Shown: positions 716-31,184, counted from the first letter of the stretch. The stretch: 32,000 nt of DNA from Gemmata obscuriglobus (GCF_008065095.1 NZ_CP042911.1:1140001-1172000), one strand, 5' to 3'. Notes: generated by a model not told the origin, from the sequence alone. Numbers and translations are program-made.

Positions 716-906
716 TTGTTCAACGCACTCACGTCGCGAACTCCGCGCAAGCCCGCGCGACCGGAGCCGTCGTTCCGTCCGCCCTTGAGCCGCGCCCCGG
801 TGCAACGCCACCTCGGCCCGTCCACGGTGTGCGGTGCCATCAGATAGATGGGGGCCGTGCCAAGTACGCCGCGCGGCTGTAACGGGGGTTACACCGAATC
901 CGGTGG
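687..906 (+). repeat. ~200-bp dispersed repeat, family F, copy 1
   Basis: Aligns by eye along its length with 5822-6028, differing at a handful of substitutions and one short indel block. Both copies begin and end with atccggtg. Both start at or just after the 3' end of a plus-strand gene. A 15-nt exact fragment, gtgcggtgccatcag, recurs at 31133-31147. Confidence 0.85.
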
Positions 907-1135: not shown

Positions 1136-1522
1136 TTACCCGGTGACCGCGGCTACGACCGCACCGGCGGCGCGGAGCGCGTCGGCGGCAGGCTTGCACA
1201 CGGCCGCGAGGCTGTCGAGCCAGCGGGTCACGCGCCCCGGGCGCGCGGGGTCGGGGTCGGTCTTCTTCACCTCGTCCTGAATCTTTCCGACCGTGCCGGC
1301 GGCATCGGCGCGGTCCGGTTCGGCGAGCGTCGCCTGCTTGAGTTCCGCCAGGGCCTTCGTGACCGCGGCCGTGAGGTCGCCCGGCGACGTCTGCGCCGCC
1401 TGAGTCACGTGCGCGATGATCTGTTCCGCGGTGACGCTCGCGCCGCGGCCGATCGCGGACCCGACCACGGTCCCCGAAACGGTGAACGTGTCGCCGCCGG
1501 TGTTCTTGGGCTCGTCGGACAT
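1136..1522 (-). CDS. small protein (128 aa) with an N-terminal Gly/Ser/Val motif shared with the neighbouring giant protein, followed by a helical Ala-rich C-terminal part
   Basis: Internal ATG at 1522 with AGGAG 9 nt upstream (reverse complement of 1523-1540). The longer 218-aa version has an Arg/Gly/Pro-rich, non-protein-like extension. Residues 10-37 (GDTFTVSGTVVGSAIGRGASVTAEQIIA) match residues 898-925 of the 1892-5791 product at 17/28 positions without gaps. Confidence 0.7.
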   Translation of the reverse strand: MSDEPKNTGGDTFTVSGTVVGSAIGRGASVTAEQIIAHVTQAAQTSPGDLTAAVTKALAELKQATLAEPDRADAAGTVGKIQDEVKKTDPDPARPGRVTRWLDSLAAVCKPAADALRAAGAVVAAVTG

Positions 1523-1891
1523 CGGAACGGCTCCTGAAGGTGAGTGCGGTGAAGAACCCCTCCCCAACCCCTCCTCCATGCTCGCCGGTCCTGTCAGCAG
1601 AGCTTCCCGCGGACCGGCGGAGAAGGGAGGGGCTTCAAGCCACTGCGCACCGATTCCGCATCGGAAGCGCGGTTGCTTTGCTCCCCCTCTCTTCTTAGGA
1701 GAGGGGGTTAGGGGGAGAGGTTCTTCGCCCCGCGGACCAGCCGACACGTCGTTACGATCGTACCCGCCGGCGCCCCCGCGCCCAAGGCTCACCGGTGTTA
1801 ATTCTCACAGCGCGAGATCGCGCACCGGGCGCTTGCGTTCGCACCGCCGTTCGGCCAGCATGGGCGAATCATTCCTCTGAGGGTTCGCCCG

Positions 1892-4800
1892 ATGGCCAAG
1901 AAGAAGAAGCCGAAAGCCGCTGCCAAGCCAAAACCGAAACCGAATTCCCTACCAAAGCTACCGGAGAGCGAGAACCCGGACGCCATCCCACCCGGGTTCA
2001 CGCTTAGGCATACGCTCCGCGGGCACACGGGCTGGATTGCTCGGCTCGCGTGGTCGCCTAGTGGACAATTAATTGCAACACCGTCAGATGACACAACGGT
2101 ATTTATATGGGATGCAGAAAAAGGAGAGCATTTACGAACGCTGAAAGGGCACACTTACGGCGCACGCGCGGTATCATGGTCGCCGAACGGGCGATTGCTG
2201 GCGTCATCCGGTATGAACCGACAAATAAAAATATGGAATTTTGTAACTGGTGAACACGTACGCACCCTAGAGGGGCACAGCGCCAACGTGAGCTCCCTGT
2301 CGTGGTCGCCGGATGGGCTGCTTTTGGCATCGGCTGGTTATGACAGCACGATAAGGGTGTGGAATGCCGAAACCAGCCAGCAAGTGCGCATCCTAGAAGG
2401 TCATGCCACGTCTGCTAACGCAACCTCATGGTCCCCAGACGGGCAGCTCCTTGTCTCAGCAGCAAGTGACGCGACGGTACGGGTGTGGGATGCGAAAACC
2501 GGTAAGCAAGTGTGCATCCTGAGAGGCCATACCGAGGATGTCTGCGCGGCGTCATGGTCCCCGAGCGGGCAGCTACTTGCCTCGGCGGCAGGTGACAAGA
2601 CAATACGGGTGTGGGACGCAAGAACCGGTAAGCAAGTGTGCATCCTAGAAGGTCATACGAGAGGGGTCCGTGCCGTATCGTGGTCTCCGGACGGACGGCT
2701 CTTGGCCTCGAAATCCTCTGACGGAACGTTTCGGCTTTGGCGTAGCGACGCTTGGGTACAGGCCGTTGCTCTACCAGAGCCCGCAGCCACGTCTAAGCCC
2801 CCGAGCCTGGCATTTCATCCGTCGCGCCCTGTCCTGGCGACCTTAACTGACGACGACAAGTCGGTTCGGATCTGGGATCTGGACATCGACCTCATCTTGA
2901 GCCGAACCCCAGCCGCACCGCCCACTGCGTATAAGTCGGCGAAGGTGGTCGTCCTCGGCGACAGCAACGTCGGCAAGTCGTGGCTCGCGTCACAACTGTT
3001 CGAGAAGCGCCACCCTACGGAAGACGAGCGCGGGACCACGCACGGGATGCGCATCTGGAAGAAGCCAGCGGGAGAGTTCCACACCAGCGCCGCCGCGCCC
3101 ATCGGCGAGGACCGGGAGGTATTCCTGTGGGACTTTGGCGGACAACCGGAATACCAACTCGTTCACCAGATGTTCCTGCACGACAGCGCCCTCGCGCTGA
3201 TCCTTTTCGACCCGACCCGTAGCAATGCCGAGCGGGATAAGGCCAAGGCGTGGAACCTGCGGCTCGGCAAACAGATCGGCCACCGCACAGTCGTCAAATT
3301 CCTGGTCGGGGCGCAGGTCGATGACGATGCAAAGGCGAAGCTCATCGATCGGGCCGCGATCGATAAGCTTCGCTCCGATTGCGGGTTCAACGACTTCTAC
3401 CCGACCAGCGGCATGACTGGTTACGGGGTCGAGGAGTTGCGTGCGGCGCTCGCCGGAGCCATCGACTGGTCGCTCGGTCAGACCACTCGGCCGGAGTTGT
3501 TCCAGCGCATCCGCGAAGAAATAGATGCTCGGCGAGCCGCGGGCGAGGTCGTCGTCACCCTGCGTGCGTTCAATGACGCGCTGCGCAAGAAGTTCCCCCA
3601 CATCTTCGCGGAAGACGCGGCCCGTGCAGTCACCGACCAACTCGCCGGGCAGGGACTTCTCGCTAAAACGCAAACCCGCGACGGAGGCGAGGCGCTGATC
3701 CTGCGGGTGGATGTGGTCGAGAAGTACGCCGGCTCGCTCATCTTCCTCGCCCGCGACAACCCGCGTGGCGTCCCGGCACTCCCGGAGAGCGACCTCGGCG
3801 TGCGACAAAATACCCTTCCCTGGACGGGAAAAGACCGGCTCGCGTGGGAGCAGGAACGGATCGTTCTGGAGTGCGTGACCGAATTGATGATCCGCCACGG
3901 GGTGTGCTTCCGCCACCAGGGCGTACTGGTATTCCCAACCCTGTTTCCGGAGGCGCAAACAGAAGCCGATGCAGAACCGCTCGCGCACGCCGTACCGCTG
4001 TGGTACGATTTCACCGGCGCCATCGACAACGTGTTTGCGTCACTGGTCAGCGGCCTCATGGTGCTGCACACGTTCGGTACGGGTCGGCTTTTGCCTGGGC
4101 GCGCTGAGTTCGACGACCCGGATCACGGGCTATGTGGACTCCGCCGACTCGCCCGTCCGGGTGGACTCGCTCACCTCGAACTGTTCTTCGGTCCCAAGAC
4201 CGCGCAGCCCCACCGGGATAAGTTCGTCGCCTATGTCGAAGCTCACCTCCGAGAGTACGGCGTGGAGGTCGCCGAATGTCAGGCCATCAAGTGCCCGGGG
4301 TGCGGCAAAGAGATCAACGAGGAGACCGTGCGCGAACGGATCGCCGACGGCAAGGAGGACGTGGTGTGTGGCCGATGTGAGCGCCGGACCCCAATTCAAG
4401 TAAGCTTGCTTGCCGGTGGAATCGCCGAGGTGCGCGAGCGCGACCCGCAGACCGACGTGAAGGTGCTCGCACTACGTCAAGAAATCAAAGAACAACTCGC
4501 GCTTGACGCGTTAATAGCCAAGGCGGTTATCGCGGCGGTAGACGGTGCCCCGCTTGACGCCCGGTCAATTCACATCCACATCGGCGACCGGTTTGATAAC
4601 TCCGGCACCATCACCGGCTCGGCCGTCGGGCGCGAGGCACAAGTAACGGCCCAAGACATCGTTGCCGCGGGGAATACTGCTGCTCGCGTCGCGAAGGCCA
4701 CCCCAGGGGCGGCAGGTGGTGACGTTAAACGCGTCCGCATTCTGCACCTGAGCGACCTGCACTTCACCAAAGGTACCGACTGGCGGCAGCACCTGGACCC

Positions 4801-5791
4801 GCTGCTCCACGACCTCAGCCACGCCGACCTGAAGTGCGACGTGGTTCACCACCTCGTTGTCAGTGGGGACTTCGTGGACAAGGGTGCCGGCGTGGCGTTC
4901 CACCCGGCGCGCGAGTTCGTGTCGGCGCTGCGCGAGCGGCTCGGGATCTCGATCGAGCGCGTGGTGCTGGTGCCCGGCAACCACGATGTGGTGGACGACG
5001 ACGCGTTCTACGAGTGGCGTAGCAAAAAGGACGGGTTGAAGGAGGGAGAGTACACCCCGAAGGGGGACGGGTTTCTAACGCGCAACTCGAAGACCTGGCC
5101 GAAGCGGTTCAAGCCGTTCTCCGACCACCTGTACCACCCCCTGTTCCAGCAGCCGTACCCGCTCAAGCCGGACGACCAGGGGCAAGGGTTCCCGACGGGC
5201 CGCACCAACGTGCAGTTCCTCGCGTTCAACTCCGCGTGGGCCGTGGACCAGACGGACCGCAAGCGGAGCGGGCTGCACCCCGGGGCGCTGCTGAAGGGCA
5301 TCGGCGCCGCGGACGGACACGAGAAGAATCTCCCCGGCCTGCGCCCCCCACTACGGGTGGCGGTGTGGCACCACGCGCTGATGCATCCGGACGGAATGAA
5401 GGACGAGTCGCCGGTGGAGCACCTGACGAACGCCGGAGTGCGGATCATATTGCACGGGGACGTTCACGAGGCGAACCCGGCGGCGAACCCGTTCCGCTGG
5501 CCCGGGCTGGTGGTGCTCGGGGCCGGGGCCTTCGGGGCTGAAGCGACGGCCCGCCCGGAATCGATCCCGGGTTTGTACCAGGTGATCGAGTTGTACACCG
5601 GCGACGGCCCGGGCGGGTACGAGTGGGCACGGGTCCACACCCGCGCCCGCGCGAAGGTCAACGGCCCCTGGGAGGGCTGGTACAACTGGCGTGACCCGGA
5701 CGGTGGAAACCGGCGGGTGTCGCACTTCGACGTGGACCTGAAGACCGGCGCCCCGCGCCCGGCCGCCGCGCGCCCGGCGGCCCGAAGCTAA
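1892..5791 (+). CDS. multidomain ROCO-like protein: WD40 repeats, Roc-type small GTPase, COR-like region, zinc ribbon, calcineurin-like metallophosphoesterase (1299 aa)
   Basis: ATG with GAGGG about 10 nt upstream. aa 38-330: seven WD40 blades (GH...SWSPDGxLLAS...DxT[IV]R[IV]WD). aa 349-526: GTPase with G1 GDSNVGKS, G3 DFGGQ, degenerate G4 VGAQVD and G5-like TSG. aa 527-795: COR-like, judged by position and length only. aa 801-829: CPGC-x21-CGRC zinc ribbon. aa 898-925: the shared motif. aa 947-1250: metallophosphoesterase with all motifs intact (LSDLHF, SGDFVDKG, PGNHD, WHH, LHGDVHE). Confidence 0.95.
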   Translation: MAKKKKPKAAAKPKPKPNSLPKLPESENPDAIPPGFTLRHTLRGHTGWIARLAWSPSGQLIATPSDDTTVFIWDAEKGEHLRTLKGHTYGARAVSWSPNGRLLASSGMNRQIKIWNFVTGEHVRTLEGHSANVSSLSWSPDGLLLASAGYDSTIRVWNAETSQQVRILEGHATSANATSWSPDGQLLVSAASDATVRVWDAKTGKQVCILRGHTEDVCAASWSPSGQLLASAAGDKTIRVWDARTGKQVCILEGHTRGVRAVSWSPDGRLLASKSSDGTFRLWRSDAWVQAVALPEPAATSKPPSLAFHPSRPVLATLTDDDKSVRIWDLDIDLILSRTPAAPPTAYKSAKVVVLGDSNVGKSWLASQLFEKRHPTEDERGTTHGMRIWKKPAGEFHTSAAAPIGEDREVFLWDFGGQPEYQLVHQMFLHDSALALILFDPTRSNAERDKAKAWNLRLGKQIGHRTVVKFLVGAQVDDDAKAKLIDRAAIDKLRSDCGFNDFYPTSGMTGYGVEELRAALAGAIDWSLGQTTRPELFQRIREEIDARRAAGEVVVTLRAFNDALRKKFPHIFAEDAARAVTDQLAGQGLLAKTQTRDGGEALILRVDVVEKYAGSLIFLARDNPRGVPALPESDLGVRQNTLPWTGKDRLAWEQERIVLECVTELMIRHGVCFRHQGVLVFPTLFPEAQTEADAEPLAHAVPLWYDFTGAIDNVFASLVSGLMVLHTFGTGRLLPGRAEFDDPDHGLCGLRRLARPGGLAHLELFFGPKTAQPHRDKFVAYVEAHLREYGVEVAECQAIKCPGCGKEINEETVRERIADGKEDVVCGRCERRTPIQVSLLAGGIAEVRERDPQTDVKVLALRQEIKEQLALDALIAKAVIAAVDGAPLDARSIHIHIGDRFDNSGTITGSAVGREAQVTAQDIVAAGNTAARVAKATPGAAGGDVKRVRILHLSDLHFTKGTDWRQHLDPLLHDLSHADLKCDVVHHLVVSGDFVDKGAGVAFHPAREFVSALRERLGISIERVVLVPGNHDVVDDDAFYEWRSKKDGLKEGEYTPKGDGFLTRNSKTWPKRFKPFSDHLYHPLFQQPYPLKPDDQGQGFPTGRTNVQFLAFNSAWAVDQTDRKRSGLHPGALLKGIGAADGHEKNLPGLRPPLRVAVWHHALMHPDGMKDESPVEHLTNAGVRIILHGDVHEANPAANPFRWPGLVVLGAGAFGAEATARPESIPGLYQVIELYTGDGPGGYEWARVHTRARAKVNGPWEGWYNWRDPDGGNRRVSHFDVDLKTGAPRPAAARPAARS

Positions 5792-5821: not shown

Positions 5822-6028
5822 ATCCGGTGAACGCGGGATGGGTCGGCTCGCACTCACGTCGCGAACTCCGCGCAAACCCCGCGCCGACCGGAGCCGTCGT
5901 TCCGTCCGCTCCTGAGCCGCGCCCCGGCGCAACGCCACCTCGGCCCGGCTACGGTGTGCGGTGCCATCAGATAGATAGGGGCCGGGTGCGCCGCGCGGCT
6001 GTAACGGGGGTTACACCGAATCCGGTGG
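5822..6028 (+). repeat. ~200-bp dispersed repeat, family F, copy 2
   Basis: See 687-906. This copy starts 31 nt after the stop of the 1299-aa gene. Confidence 0.85.
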
Positions 6029-6043
6029 AATCGTGCCTTTGCC

Positions 6044-6148
6044 GGAGCGCGGGCCTCTGGCCCGCTGGTACGCCCCAAAAGTGAGCCTCGGGTACACGCG
6101 CAGCCGAGCCGAACCGCGTAACAACAGCGGGCCAGAGGCCCGCGCTCC
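6044..6148. repeat. 24-bp perfect inverted repeat with a 57-nt spacer
   Basis: ggagcgcgggcctctggcccgctg (6044-6067) and cagcgggccagaggcccgcgctcc (6125-6148) are exact reverse complements. Confidence 0.9.
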
Positions 6149-6250
6149 AGAAAAGGCCACAACGCACACGCGCTTCAACCGGGTCGGCTACCACACTCGC
6201 GGTACGAGTACAGCCGATGGGGGCACGACGAGACACCCGCTGGCACCGTC

Positions 6251-8140: not shown

Positions 8141-8767
8141 ATGACGGAAGCGGAATGGCTGGCGTGTGACAACCCGGAGGCGATGCTTCAAGTGCTGGGC
8201 ACGCCGAGCCCGCGCCGGATGCGACTGTTCGCCTGCGCCTGCTGCTGGCGGATCGCGTCACAACTGACCGAGGCGGGACGGCGGGCGATCGAGGCCGCCG
8301 AGCGCTTCGCGGACGCCGGTGCGGCTCAAGACGAGCTACGTCCCGTTCTGGTATCGTTCCGGTCGATGGAACTGCGGAACCAAGGCGCGAACCTCGACAC
8401 GCATCTCGCTGTGAGTGATGCGCTGGACGTGCGGGACGGCAATCGCACTGCGATATGGGCGAGCCGTTGGGCCGCGTCGGGCGCCGCCGATACCCCAGCA
8501 GAATGGAAGGCGCAGGCCGCGTTGGTGCGCTGCATCTTCCGCCGCGCGCCCCCCTCCCCGCTCGACGCGGCGTACCGCACCGACACTGTCCTGGCGCTGG
8601 CCGCGCAGATGTACGAGTCCCGCGACTTCAGCGCCATGCCGATCCTCGCGGATGCGCTCCAGGATGCCGGGTGCGACAACGCCGACGTGCTCGACCACTG
8701 CCGCGACCCCGAGGGCGCCCACGCCCGTGGCTGCTGGGTGGTAGACCTCGTACTCGGTAAAGAGTGA
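8141..8767 (+). CDS. paralog 1 of a Gemmata/planctomycete-expanded family (208 aa), unknown function
   Basis: The N-terminus MTEAEWLAC and the C-terminal block MYESRDFSAMPILADALQDAGCDNADVLDHCRDPEGAHARGCWVVDLVLGKE are shared with 9349-9969 and 10506-11135. The ADxLxxxGCD segment resembles the ADWLEExGD motif of the Gemmata repeat-companion domain (from memory). Confidence 0.85.
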   Translation: MTEAEWLACDNPEAMLQVLGTPSPRRMRLFACACCWRIASQLTEAGRRAIEAAERFADAGAAQDELRPVLVSFRSMELRNQGANLDTHLAVSDALDVRDGNRTAIWASRWAASGAADTPAEWKAQAALVRCIFRRAPPSPLDAAYRTDTVLALAAQMYESRDFSAMPILADALQDAGCDNADVLDHCRDPEGAHARGCWVVDLVLGKE

Positions 8768-8871
8768 CGGCCGCTTGTGGAGGTGATGACTGGCGGATAC
8801 CTTTTGCATGAACATTCATCATCACGCCAATCGTGAATCGATCACGAAGGCGATTTTCCAGGAGTAAGCGT

Positions 8872-9297
8872 ATGTCGTTCGATTCGGATGAGGAGCCGCC
8901 CGTCCGGCGGCGCTCGCGGCTGTGGTCCGTCGCCGTCGTGTTCCTGCTCGTCGCCGCCGGTGTGGCGCTGTGGGTGTGGCTCCGGGCGGACCCGTACTTC
9001 ATCAACCGGCCCGACATGAAGGCGTCGAAGGCGCTGCTGGACACGGCCCGGAACCGGCCCCTCACCGACGAGGAGTTCGAGCAAGCGCTCGCCCTGCTGA
9101 CCACCCCGACCAAGGCCGCCCAACTGGCCGCGATCGCGACCGTCCAGGCCGACGTGGCCCGCGTGCCCGCCCGGCGCGAGCGGGCGATCGCGGCCCTGGA
9201 GCGGTGCCAGGAAGGCGCCCCGCCGGAGATCGCCCGGGCCGCGGCGCAAGCGGTCGCCCGGCTGAAGGAGCCGCCGCCACCCGCCCCGGCCCCTTGA
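8872..9297 (+). CDS. membrane-anchored Ala-rich helical protein (141 aa), unknown function
   Basis: ATG at 8872 with AGGAG 8-9 nt upstream. One TM segment (LWSVAVVFLLVAAGVALWVWL), then an amphipathic helical sequence and a Pro-rich end. Confidence 0.55.
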   Translation: MSFDSDEEPPVRRRSRLWSVAVVFLLVAAGVALWVWLRADPYFINRPDMKASKALLDTARNRPLTDEEFEQALALLTTPTKAAQLAAIATVQADVARVPARRERAIAALERCQEGAPPEIARAAAQAVARLKEPPPPAPAP

Positions 9298-9348: not shown

Positions 9349-9969
9349 ATGACGGAAGCGGAGTGGCTGGCGTGCGCGGACCCGAACCTGTTCTTGCTCG
9401 CTTTGCAGGGCAAGGCAAGCGACCGAAAGATGCGGTTGTGTGCGTGTGCCATTGTCCGTTGGGAGCCCGGGTACACCTCGGATGAACTCCGGCAGCGCGG
9501 GGTGAAACTCGCGGAACGGGTCGCCGACGGGTTAGCGACCGAAGAGGAGTGGGAGGACATGCGTGAGGAACTCCAGGTGCGTAAAGAGCATGAGGTAGCG
9601 CAAGGGGAGTTCGACCGGGCGATCGCCACGCGCAACGCTCAATACTGTCTGGACCGTAACCGGAGATACTTCTCTTGGTTCGATCCGGGGCATCGGGTGC
9701 TGCCGCCGGAAAGCACGCTCGTGATCCGCTGCATCTTCGGGAACCCGTTCCGCCCGGTCGCTTTCGCTCCGGAGTGGCGCACCAGCACCGCCGTGGCGCT
9801 GGCACAAGGCATGTACGAGTCCCGCGACTTCAGCGCCATGCCGATCCTCGCCGACGCGCTCCAAGATGCGGGCTGCGATAACGACGCCATGCTCGACCAC
9901 TGCCGCGACCCCGAGGGCGTTCACGCCCGCGGGTGCTGGGTGGTCGATTTGGTGCTGGGGAAGGAGTGA
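9349..9969 (+). CDS. paralog 2 of the MTEAEWL family (206 aa)
   Basis: Same N- and C-terminal blocks as paralog 1. Also shares GNPFRPVAFAPEWRTSTAVA with paralog 3. Confidence 0.85.
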   Translation: MTEAEWLACADPNLFLLALQGKASDRKMRLCACAIVRWEPGYTSDELRQRGVKLAERVADGLATEEEWEDMREELQVRKEHEVAQGEFDRAIATRNAQYCLDRNRRYFSWFDPGHRVLPPESTLVIRCIFGNPFRPVAFAPEWRTSTAVALAQGMYESRDFSAMPILADALQDAGCDNDAMLDHCRDPEGVHARGCWVVDLVLGKE

Positions 9970-10505: not shown

Positions 10506-11135
10506 ATGACGGAAGCGGAATGGCTCGGGCAACCCGACCTTGTCAGTCTTGAGAAGTTCATTCTCCAAGGCGGCGGGGAAAAACGCCGATTGCGGCTTCT
10601 CGCGTGCGCGTGTGTTCGCGCCGACTGGGAGATTGCGTCCGAAGGAGCCCGTGAGGCGATTCAGGCGGCTGAAGCTTACGCCGATGGCTCACTCCCAAAG
10701 GGTGCATTGAACCTCGCGGGGGACGCGGCCAGACGGGATTACATGGGTTTTAATCGAGGTACGAAAAGACAAATAGTTGCCATGCGAGCGGCCACTGTGA
10801 CCAACCCCAATGTTCAGGGCGCGCTGCGCGGGGTGCTCTGCGTGGGAATTTACCGCGAACCGGCTCTGCAGCGACGGCGAGCCAAGTTGGTCCTTGACGT
10901 TTACGGTAACCCGTTCCGCCCCGTTACTTTCGCTCCGGAGTGGCGCACCAGCACCGCAGTTGCAATCGCACGTCAGATGTACAAAACACACGACTTCAGC
11001 GCGATGCCGATCCTCGCCGACGCGCTTCAGGATGCGGGCTGCGACAGCGCCGACGTGCTCGACCACTGCCGCGACCCGAAGGGCGTTCACGTCCGCGGCT
11101 GCTGGGTGGTCGATTCGGTGCTCGGCAAGGGGTGA
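10506..11135 (+). CDS. paralog 3 of the MTEAEWL family (209 aa)
   Basis: MTEAEWLG start. C-terminal block YGNPFRPVTFAPEWRTSTAVAIARQMYKTHDFSAMPILADALQDAGCDSADVLDHCRDPKGVHVRGCWVVDSVLGKG. Confidence 0.85.
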   Translation: MTEAEWLGQPDLVSLEKFILQGGGEKRRLRLLACACVRADWEIASEGAREAIQAAEAYADGSLPKGALNLAGDAARRDYMGFNRGTKRQIVAMRAATVTNPNVQGALRGVLCVGIYREPALQRRRAKLVLDVYGNPFRPVTFAPEWRTSTAVAIARQMYKTHDFSAMPILADALQDAGCDSADVLDHCRDPKGVHVRGCWVVDSVLGKG

Positions 11136-11154: not shown

Positions 11155-11508
11155 GGTCTGGCCTTGAGTGTGGTCCGCTCGCTCCGCGAGCGGTCGCGTT
11201 ACTGCGGGTGACGGTATGAGAAGCTCACCGAGGCGCGAAGCACCGCTCGCGGAGCGAGCGGGCCACACTCAAATCTGTAGCCGGCCTCTGTGAGGCCGGT
11301 ACACGGGTGGGGTCGCACCGGCCTCACAGAGGCCGGTTACAGAATACCGCCACCGTCCAACCGAATCCGGTATGACCGGCGACGGTTGCCGAGGTGTCTG
11401 GGTCTTGAGGGTGGTCCGCTCGCTCCGCGAGCGGTCGCGTGGTCGTGAGTGACGGTATGAGAAGCTCACCGAGGCGCGAAGCACCGCTCGCGGAGCGAGC
11501 GGGCCACA
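11155..11508. repeat. nested repeat block: two ~113-bp direct repeats (11155-11267, 11395-11508), each internally palindromic, flanking an inverted pair of ccggcctc-nnn-gaggccgg hairpins (11280-11298, 11317-11335)
   Basis: The unit gtctgg..cttgag.gtggtccgctcgctccgcgagcggtcgcg...gtgacggtatgagaagctcaccgaggcgcgaagcaccgctcgcggagcgagcgggccacac occurs twice. Within a unit, gtggtccgctcgctccgcgagcggt pairs with accgctcgcggagcgagcgggccac with one mismatch. Confidence 0.9.
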
Positions 11509-11540
11509 CGGGAGGTCGGAACCGGCCCACACCGTTCGCA

Positions 11541-13667
11541 TCACTTCTTATCTTTCTTGGGCTCTTCCTTCTTGGGTTCCGTCTTCTTGGGTTCGGGCTT
11601 CTTCGCCTCTTCCTTCTTGGGCTCGGGCTTCTTGGGCTCCTCCTTCTTGGGCTCGGTCACGTCCAGCGTGACCAGCAGCGTGACCGCGAAGTCCTTTCCG
11701 CCCACCTTGGTCGTCGCGCGGAACACCAGCGGCGTCGGCCCCGCGGCGGCGCCGGGCTGCACGGTCAAACCGATCTCGCCCTTGGCCTGCCCCTTCGCGA
11801 CCGGCTTCACGGCGGGCACCACCGTCGGCGGGACGAGCAGCGGCGCGAGCGCGATGTCGCCGTCGGCGCCGGCCCCGCGGGTCACGTCCAGAACGATCTT
11901 GCCGGCCTTGCCCTTCTCCACCGCGGCCGGGTCGAACGTCGCCTTGAGCGCGAACGGCGGCGCGTCGGTCACCCCGACGGCGCACCGGTCGAGCAGCTCG
12001 GCCGGCGGGTTCGGGATGCCGCCCAGGTTCGCCTTCACCGCGTCGGTCAGCGTGCCGTAGCGCGTCACGGTCGCGCCGTCGGCGGCGATCGTGCCCTTCA
12101 CCCGGAACGGGTACGCGCCGGGCTTGGTCCCCGCCTTCACTTCGAGCGGCACGAACGCGACCGTCTGCCCCGCGGGGAGCGTCGCCTTACCGCCCGCAAC
12201 CGCGCCGCCGTCGATGCTCAGGTCCACCGGACCGGCGTACCCGTTGAGGCGGGTCACGGTGGCCATCACCGCGGTGGCGCCCCCGGCGGGCGCTTCGGCG
12301 CGGTCGAGCGCGAGCGCGACGGCGAAGTCCGGGCCGGCGGGGGCGACCGTGAGCAGGTAGACCTCGTTCGGGCCGTGGAGGAAGTTCTGGTGCTCGCAGG
12401 CGAGCACGTACTCGCCGTCGGCGGCGGGCGTGAACTCGAACCGGTTGACCGGCGCCGCCGGGTTGCTCCGGGCCACCTCGGCGCCCTTGGCGTCGAGCAC
12501 CCGCACCAGCACCTCGGCCGGCGAGTTCACCTCGAACGTGGACACCGACACCGCGAGCTTCTGCCCCTTCTTCCCGGTCACGGCGAAGTGGTCCACGTCG
12601 TTCGGCTTGTCGAACCGCCCGGACGCGCCGCCGGGCACCGGGAGCTTGTTCGCTTTCGCGCGGTCGTCGTTCGGCTCCTGCTCGGTGATCTGCGGGTGGT
12701 CGGTGACCAGCACCGGGACCGGCCAGCCCGCGTCCTTGCCGGCAGACGGCACCGCGTAGACCGCGCCGCCCGCGTCCTTCGGCACCGCGAGGGCCGTCGC
12801 GGGGACCGTTTCGGGGCCGGCGAACCCGACCTTCGCTTCCTTGCCCCGCTCGGCCGCAAGGGGGAACGCGGTGGTGGCGCCGGGGAAGTCGCCGATCCGG
12901 AGCCGGTAGAAGTAGTCGCCCCCGCCGCGGTGCGTGGTGTCGCGCACCTCCACGAGCACCTCCCCCGCCTCCTTGAACGTGTGCGCGAGCCGGCAGTCGC
13001 CCTGGAGCCCGGGCGTGTCGTCAGCGTACAGGTCGATCAGCTCGCGCCGCGTCTTGGCGTCGTGGAGCACGACGATCGGGTCGAGCGGCGACCCGATGCG
13101 CCGGGCCAGCACCTCGAACGCGAGCTTCTGCCCCGCGGCCACCTTCACCTTGTAGAAGTCCGACGTTTCGGCCGCGACGGAGCCGCTCGCCACGCACGGC
13201 ACCGGCACCGCCTGCGCGGCGTCCTTCGAGCGGCCCGCGCCGGTCGCGGCGACCGGCGGGAGCGGGTCCACCACGAACGGGCGGGCGTTCGAGGCGCCGT
13301 GCTTGGTCGCCGCCCGCACCGTGTACAGCCCGGGCGGGCACTGCGGGTCCACCTTCACCTTCACGCGCAGCTTCGCGGGGTCGGTGCCGTTCTTGTTGTC
13401 GGTCGGGACGCTCACCCGGCCCGGGCAGCTCAGGAGCACGCCCGCGGGGTCGGCGAGGTTGGTGCCGGTGAGGACGAGTTCCACCTCGTCGCCGGGCCGC
13501 GCGCCCAGGTTCGCGGGCGTCGTGAGCGTGGGGGCTTGCGGCGCGGGGGTGACGACGGGCGCTTTCGGCTGCGCCCGCGCGACGCGGCCGTCGGTCGAGA
13601 GCATCGCGGCCGCGCCGGCCGCGAACCCGGCGAGCGCGAGCGTCCAGGTGAGACGTCGAGATTGCAT
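11541..13667 (-). CDS. secreted multi-domain beta-sandwich protein with pre-peptidase-C-terminal (PPC)-like modules and a Lys/Glu/Pro-rich C-terminal tail (708 aa)
   Basis: ATG at 13667 gives the signal-like MQSRRLTWTLALAGFAAGAAAML. There are two PPC-like signatures (DFYKVKVAAGQKLAFEV...YFYRLRIG and DVDHFAVTGKKGQKLAVSV...VYLLTV). The tail is KKEEPKKPEPKKEEAKKPEPKKTEPKKEEPKKDKK. The function is not known. Confidence 0.85.
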   Translation of the reverse strand: MQSRRLTWTLALAGFAAGAAAMLSTDGRVARAQPKAPVVTPAPQAPTLTTPANLGARPGDEVELVLTGTNLADPAGVLLSCPGRVSVPTDNKNGTDPAKLRVKVKVDPQCPPGLYTVRAATKHGASNARPFVVDPLPPVAATGAGRSKDAAQAVPVPCVASGSVAAETSDFYKVKVAAGQKLAFEVLARRIGSPLDPIVVLHDAKTRRELIDLYADDTPGLQGDCRLAHTFKEAGEVLVEVRDTTHRGGGDYFYRLRIGDFPGATTAFPLAAERGKEAKVGFAGPETVPATALAVPKDAGGAVYAVPSAGKDAGWPVPVLVTDHPQITEQEPNDDRAKANKLPVPGGASGRFDKPNDVDHFAVTGKKGQKLAVSVSTFEVNSPAEVLVRVLDAKGAEVARSNPAAPVNRFEFTPAADGEYVLACEHQNFLHGPNEVYLLTVAPAGPDFAVALALDRAEAPAGGATAVMATVTRLNGYAGPVDLSIDGGAVAGGKATLPAGQTVAFVPLEVKAGTKPGAYPFRVKGTIAADGATVTRYGTLTDAVKANLGGIPNPPAELLDRCAVGVTDAPPFALKATFDPAAVEKGKAGKIVLDVTRGAGADGDIALAPLLVPPTVVPAVKPVAKGQAKGEIGLTVQPGAAAGPTPLVFRATTKVGGKDFAVTLLVTLDVTEPKKEEPKKPEPKKEEAKKPEPKKTEPKKEEPKKDKK

Positions 13668-13715
13668 ACGAAGGGCCTCGGGAGGGATCTCGTGCCCGGT
13701 CCGCTGTGCCCGCTT

Positions 13716-13785
13716 CTTGTGGCACAGACATTCCTGTCTGTGCGGTTCTGGTGCGCCGCACAGACAGGAATGTCTGTGCCACAAG
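13716..13785. repeat. palindromic repeat, family A, copy 1 (30-bp perfect arms, 10-nt loop)
   Basis: cttgtggcacagacattcctgtctgtgcgg / ttctggtgcg / ccgcacagacaggaatgtctgtgccacaag. Similar flanks extend outward (for example aagaaacagaaacc...ccggatcgtgaatcag). It lies in a divergent intergenic region. Confidence 0.95.
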
Positions 13786-13918
13786 AAACAGAAACCAGGA
13801 ACAGGCACCGGCAACCGGATCGTGAATCAGGCGGGATGCCGCGATGATACCGGTTCCGGCGCCGCGTGGCGAGTGGGAAGCCGCCGCGGGGCGCGCGACC
13901 CGCTACAGTAACGGCACC

Positions 13919-28841: not shown

Positions 28842-29172
28842 TTAGTGTGCGGGGCGGGCTGTCTGTGTGGAAGTGGTAGGGAGGGGAGTTACAGCGGGGC
28901 ACAACTCGCAATGTACCTCGTGCCATCAGCCGATATGCTGGGCGTGACTGTCGAGAGCGGCTATCTGCCGAAATACACTCCCGCTCCCCGGGTTCGCGCT
29001 TACGCCCGGTTACCTTGGAGTGGTGCCAACGGATTCCAAGTGCGGACGTCCGCACCGTGCCCAATTCGCGTTGTCTGACCGCAGGCGCGTCGGTATCTGG
29101 TGGCTATTCCGCTCAGACGGTGCGATTATTAAGGGGTGGAGGTCGGCAGTTGCAGTGCGAGGACACAGAGCC

Positions 29173-29910
29173 ATGAACGCGAGCGGGCAATATTCGAGGG
29201 CGCCGCTCATTGAGGCTGTACTCGACATCCAGGTGAGCTTGGCGCCAGACTTTCCGCTTGACAAGCTCCAGAATTGCCAAAAGCGAGTGAAGGCGGAATA
29301 CCCTGGGCGTAAAGAAACCCGGCTTCACCACGGCCATTTCGAGTTCGCCAATCAGAAGTCGCTGACCAGCACGTCAACGCACCCGCTTGGGTACCAGTTC
29401 GTGTCCGCGGACAAGAAGCAGGTTTTCCAGGCCAAACTCGACGGTTTCGCGTTCAACCGCCTGCGTCCCTATAATGGCTGGGATGAGTTCTTCGCTGAGG
29501 CTCGGCGCCTGTGGGAAGAGTACCGGCGCGTAACGAAGCCGAGTCGGTACAACCGCGTGTCGTTGCGGTACATCAACCGCTTCGACTTCCCGCACGCGAA
29601 CGTTAAGCTCGAAACGTATTTTAAGACGTTGCCGACGATTGCACCCGAGTTGCCGCAAGACTTGGGCGCCTACTTTTTTCAGGCAATTATTCCGCTTGAA
29701 GAAAATGGAACAACCGTTGCGATCACGCAGACAGCGGTCGAGCCTCCGGCCCAAGGGCAGGTCTCTGTCATCTTCGACCTCGATCTGTTTTGCACAGAAG
29801 GCATCGTGGGCGAGAATGACATTTGGCCAATTTTCGGTAAGCTTCAGAAGTGGAAGAATAAGGTTTTCGAGGCCTGTATTACCGAGGAAACGCGGAAGCT
29901 CATAAGCTAA
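29173..29910 (+). CDS. TIGR04255-like family protein (245 aa), unknown function
   Basis: ATG at 29173 with GAGG about 10 nt upstream. The opening Y-x-x-A-P-L-I-E-A-V-L-D-I-Q-V and the internal SLRYINRFDFP resemble the conserved blocks of TIGR04255 (from memory). It lies in a low-GC segment. Confidence 0.7.
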   Translation: MNASGQYSRAPLIEAVLDIQVSLAPDFPLDKLQNCQKRVKAEYPGRKETRLHHGHFEFANQKSLTSTSTHPLGYQFVSADKKQVFQAKLDGFAFNRLRPYNGWDEFFAEARRLWEEYRRVTKPSRYNRVSLRYINRFDFPHANVKLETYFKTLPTIAPELPQDLGAYFFQAIIPLEENGTTVAITQTAVEPPAQGQVSVIFDLDLFCTEGIVGENDIWPIFGKLQKWKNKVFEACITEETRKLIS

Positions 29911-30278
29911 TGGCCACTCTTTCCTCTACCCACCGGCCGCACTTGATGAGCCTTCCGGGCGCTCAGAATGATGCCGCCGAACGGGCTTCGCAAGCGTCGT
30001 ACCGTCGCTGGCGAACGGGACCGGTGAGCTTGGACGGCATGTTCCCGAGCAGCGAGCCTGCTGTGGTTGAGTTTACACCGAAGCCAATTGCTCACACGCC
30101 GGGCTTAATTGGCAGCTTACGAACATCCGTCGCAATGACGGTCGCAAGTCTAGCAATCGGTATTGGGCAATTCGTAGTCGGAGAGAACGCGCTCGCGGTG
30201 GGTTTTTTACTTCTGGCGGTAGTCGGAGTGATGACGACATCTTTTCTTCGCGGCGTTAGTAAGAGAAGATCAGCCTAA
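29910..30278 (+). CDS. small membrane protein, 2 predicted TM helices at the C-terminus (122 aa)
   Basis: The ATG overlaps the preceding stop (TAATG at 29908-29912). TM segments SVAMTVASLAIGIGQFVV and ALAVGFLLLAVVGVMTTSFL. Confidence 0.55.
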   Translation: MATLSSTHRPHLMSLPGAQNDAAERASQASYRRWRTGPVSLDGMFPSSEPAVVEFTPKPIAHTPGLIGSLRTSVAMTVASLAIGIGQFVVGENALAVGFLLLAVVGVMTTSFLRGVSKRRSA

Positions 30279-30294
30279 GCCCGTCCACGGCGTT

Positions 30295-30765
30295 ATGATG
30301 TCGCCCAACTCTTCGTTCAGGCTATTGCTGGTCGTTCTCACAGTGTGCGTGGCCGTTGCAGCCGCTGTGAGCCTTCTGCCACCCGAGCAATTGGCATTTT
30401 TCGAGAGCATACCTGCAAAACGCTGGCTGACCGGTTTCTTGGCAATCAATCTAGCTGCCGCGGCATCAATCGTTTACTTTTATCTCGTTTTGCCTTCGCC
30501 ACCCCGGTTCGCTTCCACAATGGCATTCCTGGGGATCGGAGTAATATCCGCCATGATTGCCGGGACCGCTCTGCGCCCGGACGAGTTCACGTTCGCTTTC
30601 AATCACGAGCGTGGCTTTCCTGAGCTAAAGGTGAAATTCGGTGGGCTGAACGGATGGAGCGTGCTCCTCGGCTTTGGATTGTTGCTCTTTATTTTCTTTA
30701 TCGTTCGATTTTATCCTGAGGAATACTACCGGCACTACAGGAAGTCATCCGTCACGGATAAGTAA
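30295..30765 (+). CDS. small integral membrane protein, 4 predicted TM helices (156 aa)
   Basis: Hydrophobic segments FRLLLVVLTVCVAVAAAVSLL, WLTGFLAINLAAAASIVYFYLVL, MAFLGIGVISAMIAGTAL and WSVLLGFGLLLFIFFIVRF. It starts 16 nt after the previous stop and uses AT-rich codons. Confidence 0.65.
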   Translation: MMSPNSSFRLLLVVLTVCVAVAAAVSLLPPEQLAFFESIPAKRWLTGFLAINLAAAASIVYFYLVLPSPPRFASTMAFLGIGVISAMIAGTALRPDEFTFAFNHERGFPELKVKFGGLNGWSVLLGFGLLLFIFFIVRFYPEEYYRHYRKSSVTDK

Positions 30766-31184
30766 AAGCGAATGAAAGAATAAGTTTCTCTTACCCCCGC
30801 GGGGACCGACCCACGCCGTTCACCACCACCGCCGTTGCGAGCACCTGGAACAAGTTGCTCTTCTCGTCCACGATCGGGCCGCAGTTGCTCACCTCACACA
30901 CGGCAACCTCGCTCACCCCTGCGAGTCGCTACCGGTTGAGCGGGATCGTCACGAGCCGGGGGGAACCCGGTGAGGTTCGCGGCCCGGTGTGCTTCTCGCC
31001 GTGGCTCCTCCCGTCCCCGAGCAGCATCACCGCGACCGGGTAGCCCCGCCCGTCCGCCCGTGTCCGCCGGCGGGTAGCGCGCCCATCACCGGCCCTCTTG
31101 CGTTGGAAGCGGCGTCAGTCGCACCGGGCTGCGTGCGGTGCCATCAGGTGAGTAGGGGGACGGTCCGCGCGGACACTGCGACCG

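Follow-up and report, generated by a model that had tools for sequence, protein, structure and literature searches.

Kaur, Iyer, Burroughs and Aravind (2021, eLife, PMC8195603) classified the Roc (Ras of complex proteins) domain as an AP-GTPase and predicted that prokaryotic proteins combining AP-GTPase and COR domains, with N-terminal leucine-rich repeats (LRRs) and at least 24 types of C-terminal effector, act against invaders. In two experimentally validated anti-phage systems found with DefensePredictor, DS-8 and DS-9A (Science 2026, PMC13092281), a metallophosphoesterase (MPP) is present; DS-8 is an MPP fused to a NACHT ATPase in one protein, and both its catalytic and its NTPase mutants lose defence. 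Sensors and outputs encoded by adjacent genes are described for amyloid-signalling pairs, namely the BASS motifs with Bell/NLR proteins (Dyrka et al. 2020) and Bab/Agp (bioRxiv 2024.11.07.622273). Here we analysed a stretch of 32,000 nucleotides from Gemmata obscuriglobus (GCF_008065095.1, NZ_CP042911.1:1140001-1172000; hereafter the window, with positions counted from its first letter), in which a large gene (1892..5791, + strand) and a small gene (GobsT_09470, 1136..1522, - strand) are transcribed divergently. The large gene encodes a protein with a WD40 propeller, Roc and COR domains, a zinc ribbon and an MPP, and its product shares a short motif with that of the small gene. We consider it probable that the two genes form a conflict (anti-invader) system in which the large protein, a single polypeptide of the Roco type, is an NLR-like sensor and the small protein a linked output.

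The large protein resembles the proteins of Kaur et al. in its N-terminal repeat sensor, Roc-COR switch and variable C-terminal effector, in having multiple paralogues and in being enriched in bacteria with complex life styles; a repeat sensor with Roc-COR and variable effector, paralogue expansion and a sporadic distribution are all found in its family. The source data of PMC8195603 list 'BetaPropeller+AP-GTPase+Calcineurin' (NUN13817.1, 1598 aa, Myxococcales, annotated as metallophosphoesterase), together with the entries 'TIR+LRR+AP-GTPase+COR+Calcineurin', 'AP-GTPase+ZNR' and 'TIR+BetaPropeller+AP-GTPase'. An earlier reading of the window, made by a model from the sequence alone (hereafter the sequence-only reading), had taken the domain combination to be novel; it had in fact been catalogued there, without comment. 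The text of Kaur et al. concerns LRR sensors and their beta-propeller entries carry no COR label, whereas in the present protein the COR domain is shown by fold. Their study was purely computational and contains no analysis of the window family, its zinc ribbon, the shared motif or the small module. The large protein is a well-defined new member of this predicted class, and on comparative evidence the motif-sharing small module would be the new element.

The large gene (1892..5791, +, stop codon included) is a continuous open reading frame (ORF) of 1299 aa, uninterrupted as the sequence-only reading had it, and the domain order proposed for it agrees with the Pfam, fold and conservation evidence given below. 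Its last 964 aa are 100% identical to NCBI protein P0001 of Gemmata obscuriglobus; this entry ('metallophosphoesterase', 964 aa) begins at residue 336 and leaves the WD40 part (window 1892-2896) uncalled. Many genomes (most of the 80 homologue loci) encode uninterrupted full-length orthologues that are 1200-1860 aa long and laid out alike, so the long form is the real gene and the WD40 fusion is real. The orthologue at L087, a metagenomic contig, is 68% identical to the large protein across aa 19-1294. Under-called starts were also seen among several homologues, such as Sorangium P0034 (916 aa), where 1.8 kb upstream is uncalled.

The Roc domain (aa 348-525, 2933..3466, +) matched PF08477 over aa 351-477 when the propeller was removed from the Pfam query (E=4.2e-16; score 59.7 bits, cut-off 27), and the best PDB sequence matches of this region were the Roc domain of LRRK2, Chlorobium tepidum Roco and Rab proteins. 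The G motifs had been read correctly from the sequence, including K362 as the P-loop lysine: the P-loop is GDSNVGKS, followed by DFGGQ and by GAQVD as G4. This G4 is atypical, being GAQVD in the window protein and GAKxD in the family consensus. Sequence profile searches detected the WD40, Roc and MPP domains of the large protein, whereas no Pfam COR-A or COR-B model matched it. The COR domain emerged from the fold. Residues 340-850 were modelled with AlphaFold2 from an alignment of 55 homologues (pLDDT 85.5, pTM 0.82); in a Foldseek search with this model the 26 best PDB matches were all Roco proteins, with isolated small GTPases only thereafter. The Roco structures matched were C. tepidum Roco (LRR-Roc-COR, 6hlu, and RocCOR, 3dpu), LRRK1 (8e05), LRRK2 and M. 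barkeri Roco2 (4wnr); the alignments covered ~510-590 columns with TM ~0.55-0.63 and E from 4e-16 to 4e-12, and against 3dpu_A the model gave TM 0.57/0.60 over the full length. On the modelled fold, the 270 residues after Roc, which the sequence-only reading had described as COR-like, are the COR domain (COR-A and COR-B, aa 526-795, 3467..4276, +), and by its Roc-COR tandem fold the large protein is a genuine member of the Roco proteins, despite the silence of the Pfam COR models.

With C. tepidum Roco, LRRK1 and LRRK2 the window protein shares this tandem fold over ~510 residues, at a sequence identity of 13-16%. It differs from them in having an N-terminal WD40 propeller where they have LRRs, in lacking a kinase, in carrying a zinc ribbon and an MPP after COR, and in its G4 (GAQVD/GAKxD). 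The protein is NLR-like by logic only and is no member of the STAND/NLR class (NACHT, NB-ARC), since its central NTPase is a Ras-like Roc GTPase and no STAND-class ATPase.

The presumed sensor is a seven-bladed WD40 beta-propeller (aa 38-337, 2003..2902, +), which PF00400 recognised in seven stretches (E=1.6e-72), matching the seven blades counted previously. Six of the blades are exactly 42 aa long, mean pairwise identity among blades is 47%, and the DNA is a tandem repeat with a period of 126 nt and 78% matches. Compared with close relatives, the propeller is the most divergent globular domain (55-61% identity, against 67-81% for Roc, COR and MPP). Divergence from close relatives together with tandemly repeated blades is the pattern of fast-evolving repeat sensors in NLR-type proteins. 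The G+C content of the WD40-coding region is 0.586, below that of its surroundings.

Behind COR lies a four-cysteine zinc ribbon (CPGC-x21-CGRC, aa 801-829, 4292..4378, +), and its earlier prediction is upheld by conservation: among 45 homologues Cys826 and Cys829 never vary, and Cys801 and Cys804 are kept in at least 90%. The ribbon is modelled as short beta-hairpins (pLDDT 78-90). It is followed by a long linker helix (aa 852-883, 4445..4540, +; helix 57-88 of an AlphaFold2 model of aa 796-1299, pLDDT 84.4); the linker is found in every family member and measures 63-66 aa in most. The C-terminal domain and presumed effector is a calcineurin-like MPP (aa 945-1285, 4724..5746, +; PF00149, E=2e-7, above cut-off). 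Its metal-binding motifs (DxH, GD, GNH[DE], H, GH) had been described as intact, and in the same 45 homologues all five proved invariant or at least 90% conserved, at D955/H957, D993, N1030/H1031, H1160/H1161 and H1192; the numbering D954/H956 given earlier for the DLH motif was one residue off, the correct positions being D955/H957.

Among defence-related profiles, the MPP matched NCBIfam DS9_1 'anti-phage phosphoesterase' (DS-9A, NF053862) with E=4.7e-19 and 68.6 bits (equivalog cut-off 420) and DS8 (NF053861) with E=6.5e-12 and 44 bits (equivalog cut-off 790). Because these scores are far below the equivalog cut-offs, the MPP belongs to a family different from that of DS-8 and DS-9A. The window protein resembles these systems in its homologous MPP domain and resembles DS-8 also in joining the MPP to an NTPase switch in one polypeptide; it differs in having a Roc-COR GTPase switch in place of the NACHT ATPase and an MPP that is C-terminal, not N-terminal. 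PADLOC models gave PDC-S60 with E=1e-13 and 'Effector endonuclease' PDLC00736 with E=3.2e-9, and NCBIfam gave PdeM with E=1.7e-4 and a marginal SbcD match. The best PDB sequence matches were Rv0805 and Icc. In the fold search with aa 796-1299 the best match was B. subtilis YydB (9a6c_B, E=3e-15), followed in order by the cyclic-nucleotide phosphodiesterases Lmo2642 and Rv0805, GpdQ, purple acid phosphatase, Mre11 and SMPDL3A/B; Mre11 and SbcD matched with E from 1e-7 to 1e-4. The enzyme class is clear, and we think a nucleotide phosphodiesterase likelier than a nuclease.

Relatives of the large protein formed 76 clusters in a word-indexed protein search, and a scan of ~186,000 species genomes (one genome per species) gave 157 confirmed matches. 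They are spread over Planctomycetota, Acidobacteriota, Myxococcota, Verrucomicrobiota, Cyanobacteria, Bradyrhizobium, one Bacteroidota metagenome-assembled genome (MAG) and methanogenic archaea, and some myxobacterial and deltaproteobacterial genomes have as many as three copies. The succession of propeller, Roc, COR, zinc ribbon and MPP is preserved in almost all full-length members. Departures from it are of the sort expected in conflict systems: P0057 has a C-terminal TIR domain where others carry the MPP, L020 has a TIR domain before the propeller (TIR_2, E=9e-21), and in myxobacterial proteins of ~1600 aa (L059, L048, L045, L049 and others) an additional N-terminal MPP (PF00149, E=3e-7) leaves the sensor-switch core with an MPP on either side. 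The protein at L077 (3669-9179, Acanthopleuribacteraceae MAG) combines WD40 and Roc with a truncated COR, a restriction-endonuclease-like stretch, a NACHT-like P-loop (PF05729, E=9e-6, slightly under cut-off), pentapeptide-like repeats and a second propeller; if read so, it would hold a GTPase and a STAND NTPase within one polypeptide. A long N-terminal 'extension' of L071, amylase-like, was discarded as an artefact of ORF extension.

The gene is in pieces (split ORFs) at 9 of the 80 loci, and in the Gemmataceae MAG JAXMAY010000015.1 (L001/L006, 5707-10808) an IS630-type element (HTH_23/DDE_3 genes) lies between the WD40 and the Roc-COR-MPP parts. More copies of the insertion sequence (IS) were seen upstream of this split gene. 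Synteny was not conserved across the compared homologue loci, whose neighbours include a TIR-nSTAND1-WD40 protein and, elsewhere, relaxase/TraG genes. The neighbourhoods bore out neither a constant adjacency of the small gene nor a housekeeping-like synteny. Patchy cross-phylum spread, multicopy genomes, broken copies and effector swaps are hallmarks of a conflict system, and the comparison of homologues supports such a role.

The small gene (1136..1522, -; ATG at 1522, stop at 1136-1138) encodes 128 aa, and its start codon is separated from that of the large gene by 369 bp (1523..1891), presumed to hold the promoters of both; ORF reading confirms the gene and the distance as previously described. 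A promoter scan of 1523..1891 found no sigma-70-type match, and the sigma-70 consensus says little for Planctomycetota. Since homologues are conserved (54-66% identity), the small gene is a real gene. The N-terminal motif of its product (aa 10-37) is followed by a helical domain (aa 38-128, 1139..1411, -), which was recognised by its likeness to the C-termini of Gemmata Roco proteins. When a profile of the small-protein family was run against 1.84 billion representatives, 118 matches were obtained. The module of motif plus helical domain (~120 residues) is C-terminal in 118 of 126 proteins and free-standing in ~30, and on sequence similarity the small protein is identified as a free-standing copy of it. 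No Pfam model covers the module, and a PDB profile search gave no solved homologue, only compositional matches to designed helical repeats.

The N-terminal fusion partners of the module (117 representatives) include TCAD2 (12), pentapeptide repeats (9), COR-B (4), COR-A (3), LRR with Roc (1), EAD7, CHAT, caspase, zinc ribbons and HTH. Two of the fusions come from Gemmata. The small protein and the C-terminus of a G. algarum LRR-Roc-COR protein (P0093, WP_261190549) share 58% identity (E=5e-18), and in G. massiliana P0202 (WP_162669385), with the domain order Roc, COR, motif and helical domain, the C-terminus is 36% identical to the small protein's helical domain (E=3e-18). Through these fusions the small gene is tied to Roco proteins in Rosetta-stone fashion. 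The PADLOC model PDC-M14B was matched by 72 of the 117 module representatives (best E=1e-12), the helical domain fitting its C-terminal ~90 positions; the window small protein matched only these positions, with E=2.6e-3, and no PDC-M14A partner was seen. PDC-M14B and PDC-M36A are uncharacterised candidates, no paper mentioning them was found in the library searched, and the association with Roco proteins lies outside those models. In many fused module proteins (P0096-P0201) a conserved Met or Val directly precedes the motif (…HMGDKINIGG…, …HVGDQF…), so that the module might be released by translation starting internally.

The divergent arrangement recurs at L087, where the 1283-aa large orthologue and a small orthologue (64% identity) are 187 bp apart and the other flanking genes differ. 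Because L087 repeats the arrangement with different flanks, the pair is conserved as a unit in at least one Gemmata sub-clade. A metagenome scan for small-protein loci gave, among the matches listed, one remnant (L083), and a tblastn search with a module protein gave no match in plasmids or phages.

The most informative feature of the locus is the motif common to both proteins. The sequence-only reading had noticed a Gly/Ser/Val motif in the large protein, which is real and specific, and had overlooked the copy in the small one. The large-protein motif (aa 898-925, GDRFDNSGTITGSAVGREAQVTAQDIVA, 4583..4666, +) and the small-protein motif (aa 10-37, GDTFTVSGTVVGSAIGRGASVTAEQIIA, 1412..1495, -) are identical at 17 of 28 positions (pairwise E=1e-8). 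A motif-only hidden Markov model (HMM), built from 24 diverse module proteins, was run on 19,302 translated segments from the studied loci; it recognised the small-protein motif with E=2.7e-11 and the large-protein motif with E=2.7e-5, with a clean gap to background. The model matched only free-standing modules, the L088 partner described below and Roco-MPP proteins of the Gemmata clade (E from 5e-13 to 3e-5), and the next match had E>1. In the large proteins the motif sits in an insert of ~60 aa that is confined to the Gemmata clade (the window, L003, L004, L005, L008, L001/L006 and L087); it scores E from 8e-10 to 6.5e-7 in L003, L005 and L008 and is degenerate in L004 and L001.

An unrelated pair, at L088 (GCA_049309665.1, 6424-8372), carries the same motif. 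A 520-aa PDC-M36A-like protein (annotated DUF8370, DUF8371) ends with it (…VGDNFVRIDGNVTGAAIGPGASVSARDISTERSGS*), and 15 bp after its gene a 123-aa protein consists of the motif and then the helical domain; the pair adjoins Eco57I and BsuBI/PstI restriction-modification genes and an integrase. In P0137, P0149, P0155 and P0190 an L088-type N-terminal domain is fused to the whole module. From its sequence context L088 appears to be a two-gene candidate defence system in its own right, using the same coupling. The same short motif is therefore carried by the products of two adjacent genes in the window pair, the L087 pair and the L088 pair.

Split pairs with the motif on both halves, alongside fused versions, follow the logic of EAD coupling (Kaur et al.) and of Bell/NLR and Bab/Agp. 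The latter likewise consist of an adjacent small helical protein (~110-130 aa) and a large repeat sensor (>1000 aa) with a common Gly-rich motif of ~25 residues, and in them, too, fused ('all-in-one') and split versions both exist. Motif placement differs: the small protein of the window has it at the N-terminus, the large one internally and the large protein of L088 at the C-terminus, whereas it is C-terminal in Bab and Bell and N-terminal in NLR and Agp. Profile and PDB searches found no Bell-domain similarity in the window or the module proteins. We do not claim an amyloid, because the motif positions differ and because AlphaFold2 models half of the large-protein motif at low confidence and half as helix.

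In the mechanism that we consider probable, the WD40 propeller, fast-evolving and internally repetitive, would bind an invader-derived ligand. Binding would shift the nucleotide state of Roc-COR and its COR-mediated oligomeric state, in the manner known from Roco proteins of bacteria and humans, and this shift would release the C-terminal MPP, a DS-8/DS-9A/YydB-like phosphodiesterase. The freed MPP would hydrolyse a nucleotide-type substrate (nucleic acid, cyclic or linear nucleotide), so that the infected cell is arrested or a signal is removed. The motif upstream of the MPP may pair homotypically with the N-terminal motif of the small protein, and the pairing could recruit or activate the helical domain as a second, trans-acting output. 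A sensor-switch-effector reading, already put forward in the sequence-only reading, is right in kind: it fits the patchy spread, the multicopy lineages, the broken copies, the effector swaps and the kinship of the MPP to anti-phage MPPs. The small gene as a partner fares less evenly, being plausible from the shared motif and the L087 pair and inconstant among relatives.

Several results weigh against this mechanism. The small gene adjoins none of the 80 homologue loci, including those of the close relatives L003, L004 and L005, whose large proteins keep the motif although they have no adjacent small gene. Within-locus co-evolution of the motifs was looked for and not seen, same-locus pairs being no more alike than cross-locus pairs. 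The large-protein motif is internal, not terminal, and AlphaFold2 gives its first half a pLDDT <50 and its second half as helix. Given the scores above, the homology to DS-8 and DS-9A holds at the domain level only. A defence-island reading of the window was rejected, the neighbours being a PQQ-like fragment, a rhodanese and a methyltransferase, with no defence genes among them, and a literature search found no experiment on any Roco protein in defence. The first two of these results and the degenerate motifs of L004 and L001 speak for the main alternative, in which the large protein would be a Roco conflict sensor acting by itself and the small gene no more than a neighbour. The motif would then be no working interaction device but a recombination scar of domain shuffling among Gemmata Roco genes that formerly had the motif and helical domain, a process made plausible by the module's presence in cis in other Gemmata Roco proteins. 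We regard this as rather unlikely. The divergent pair is kept at ~65% protein identity in the different context of L087, the good motif scores in L003, L005 and L008 argue for selection, and the unrelated pair at L088 repeats the pattern of a motif on both partners; this synteny, retention and parallel together weaken the bystander explanation.

A role outside conflict is very improbable. A Roco GTPase might regulate a phosphodiesterase acting on cyclic nucleotides or lipids in the ordinary cell biology of Gemmata, such as development or membrane organisation. In favour of this, the window lacks flanking defence genes, the nearest solved folds include GpdQ and the cNMP phosphodiesterases Rv0805 and Lmo2642, and bacterial Roco proteins have no experimentally assigned function. 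Such a housekeeping function is opposed by the patchy, cross-phylum spread with multicopy genomes and broken or IS-split copies, by the exchange of the effector for TIR in relatives, by the lack of conserved synteny, by the proximity of the MPP to the DS-9A and DS-8 anti-phage models and by the match of the module partner to a PADLOC defence-candidate family. As a variant of the mechanism that we prefer, the activated MPP could be a DNA or RNA nuclease (Mre11/SbcD- or PdeM-like) and no small-nucleotide phosphodiesterase. The matches to PDLC00736, PdeM and SbcD and the Mre11/SbcD folds speak for this variant, which we hold to be a minority possibility: YydB, Lmo2642, Rv0805 and GpdQ are better fold matches, Rv0805 and Icc lead the PDB sequence matches, DS-8 has been compared to SMPDL3A, a cGAMP phosphodiesterase (PMC13092281), and neither an Mre11-type capping domain nor a DNA-binding domain was seen.

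The two genes are bracketed exactly by a direct repeat of ~183-230 bp, whose copies at 724..906 (+, extending to ~675) and 5849..6028 (+, extending to ~5810) are 92-94% identical and are the only two in the window; the repeat was absent from the other loci compared. The repeat matched no Rfam family at gathering or E-value thresholds and its folding z-scores were 0.25 and 0.78 (no excess), results that give no support to reading it as an RNA or structured element. The direct repeats and the low G+C of the WD40 region fit acquisition or mobility of the genes as a block, without proving it. The window contains no tRNA gene, so a tRNA-linked island is not indicated. Just past the right copy an inverted repeat was seen (6035-6067 / 6125-6157; 33-nt arms, 94% complementary, 57 nt apart), for which 6035-6157 gave chance-level miRNA-type Rfam matches and a weak terminator-like site on the minus strand, and another lies at the window start (12-73 / 85-146; 62-nt arms, 82% complementary, 11 nt apart). 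Further along the window, the ORFs at 8141-8767 (208 aa, beginning MTEAEWLACDNPEAML), 8833-9297, 9349-9969, 10506-11135 and 11439-13847, one of them 802 aa long, have no Pfam match, and a second low-G+C stretch at 29001-31000 (0.56-0.57 against ~0.68-0.75 around it) is possibly foreign DNA.

Roco proteins are heavily studied for LRRK2 and Parkinson's disease, and a defence role of the bacterial ones has been proposed from computation only. The present family offers a clean, testable case, with a single gene, a recognisable sensor and an enzymatic output whose kin (DS-8, DS-9A) are active against phage, and with homologues in culturable Myxococcus, Archangium, Sorangium and Bradyrhizobium. The unnamed module, partly covered by PDC-M14B, ties Roco proteins to several other conflict systems, and its split and fused forms provide a hypothesis for the coupling of output to sensor. 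Tentatively, the motif of ~28 residues may be an undescribed homotypic coupling element, possibly amyloid-like, and the helical domain of ~90 residues a widespread 'plug-in' executioner or adaptor in conflict systems of prokaryotes, with the Gemmata Roco sensor activating the small protein in trans beside its own phosphodiesterase. If this is true, one module would serve Roc-COR, TCAD2/pentapeptide, EAD7, CHAT/caspase and PDC-M36A-like proteins, whether joined to them or encoded apart with the motif on both halves, and in the Gemmata pair NLR/amyloid signalling would gain its first GTPase-switched (non-STAND) counterpart.

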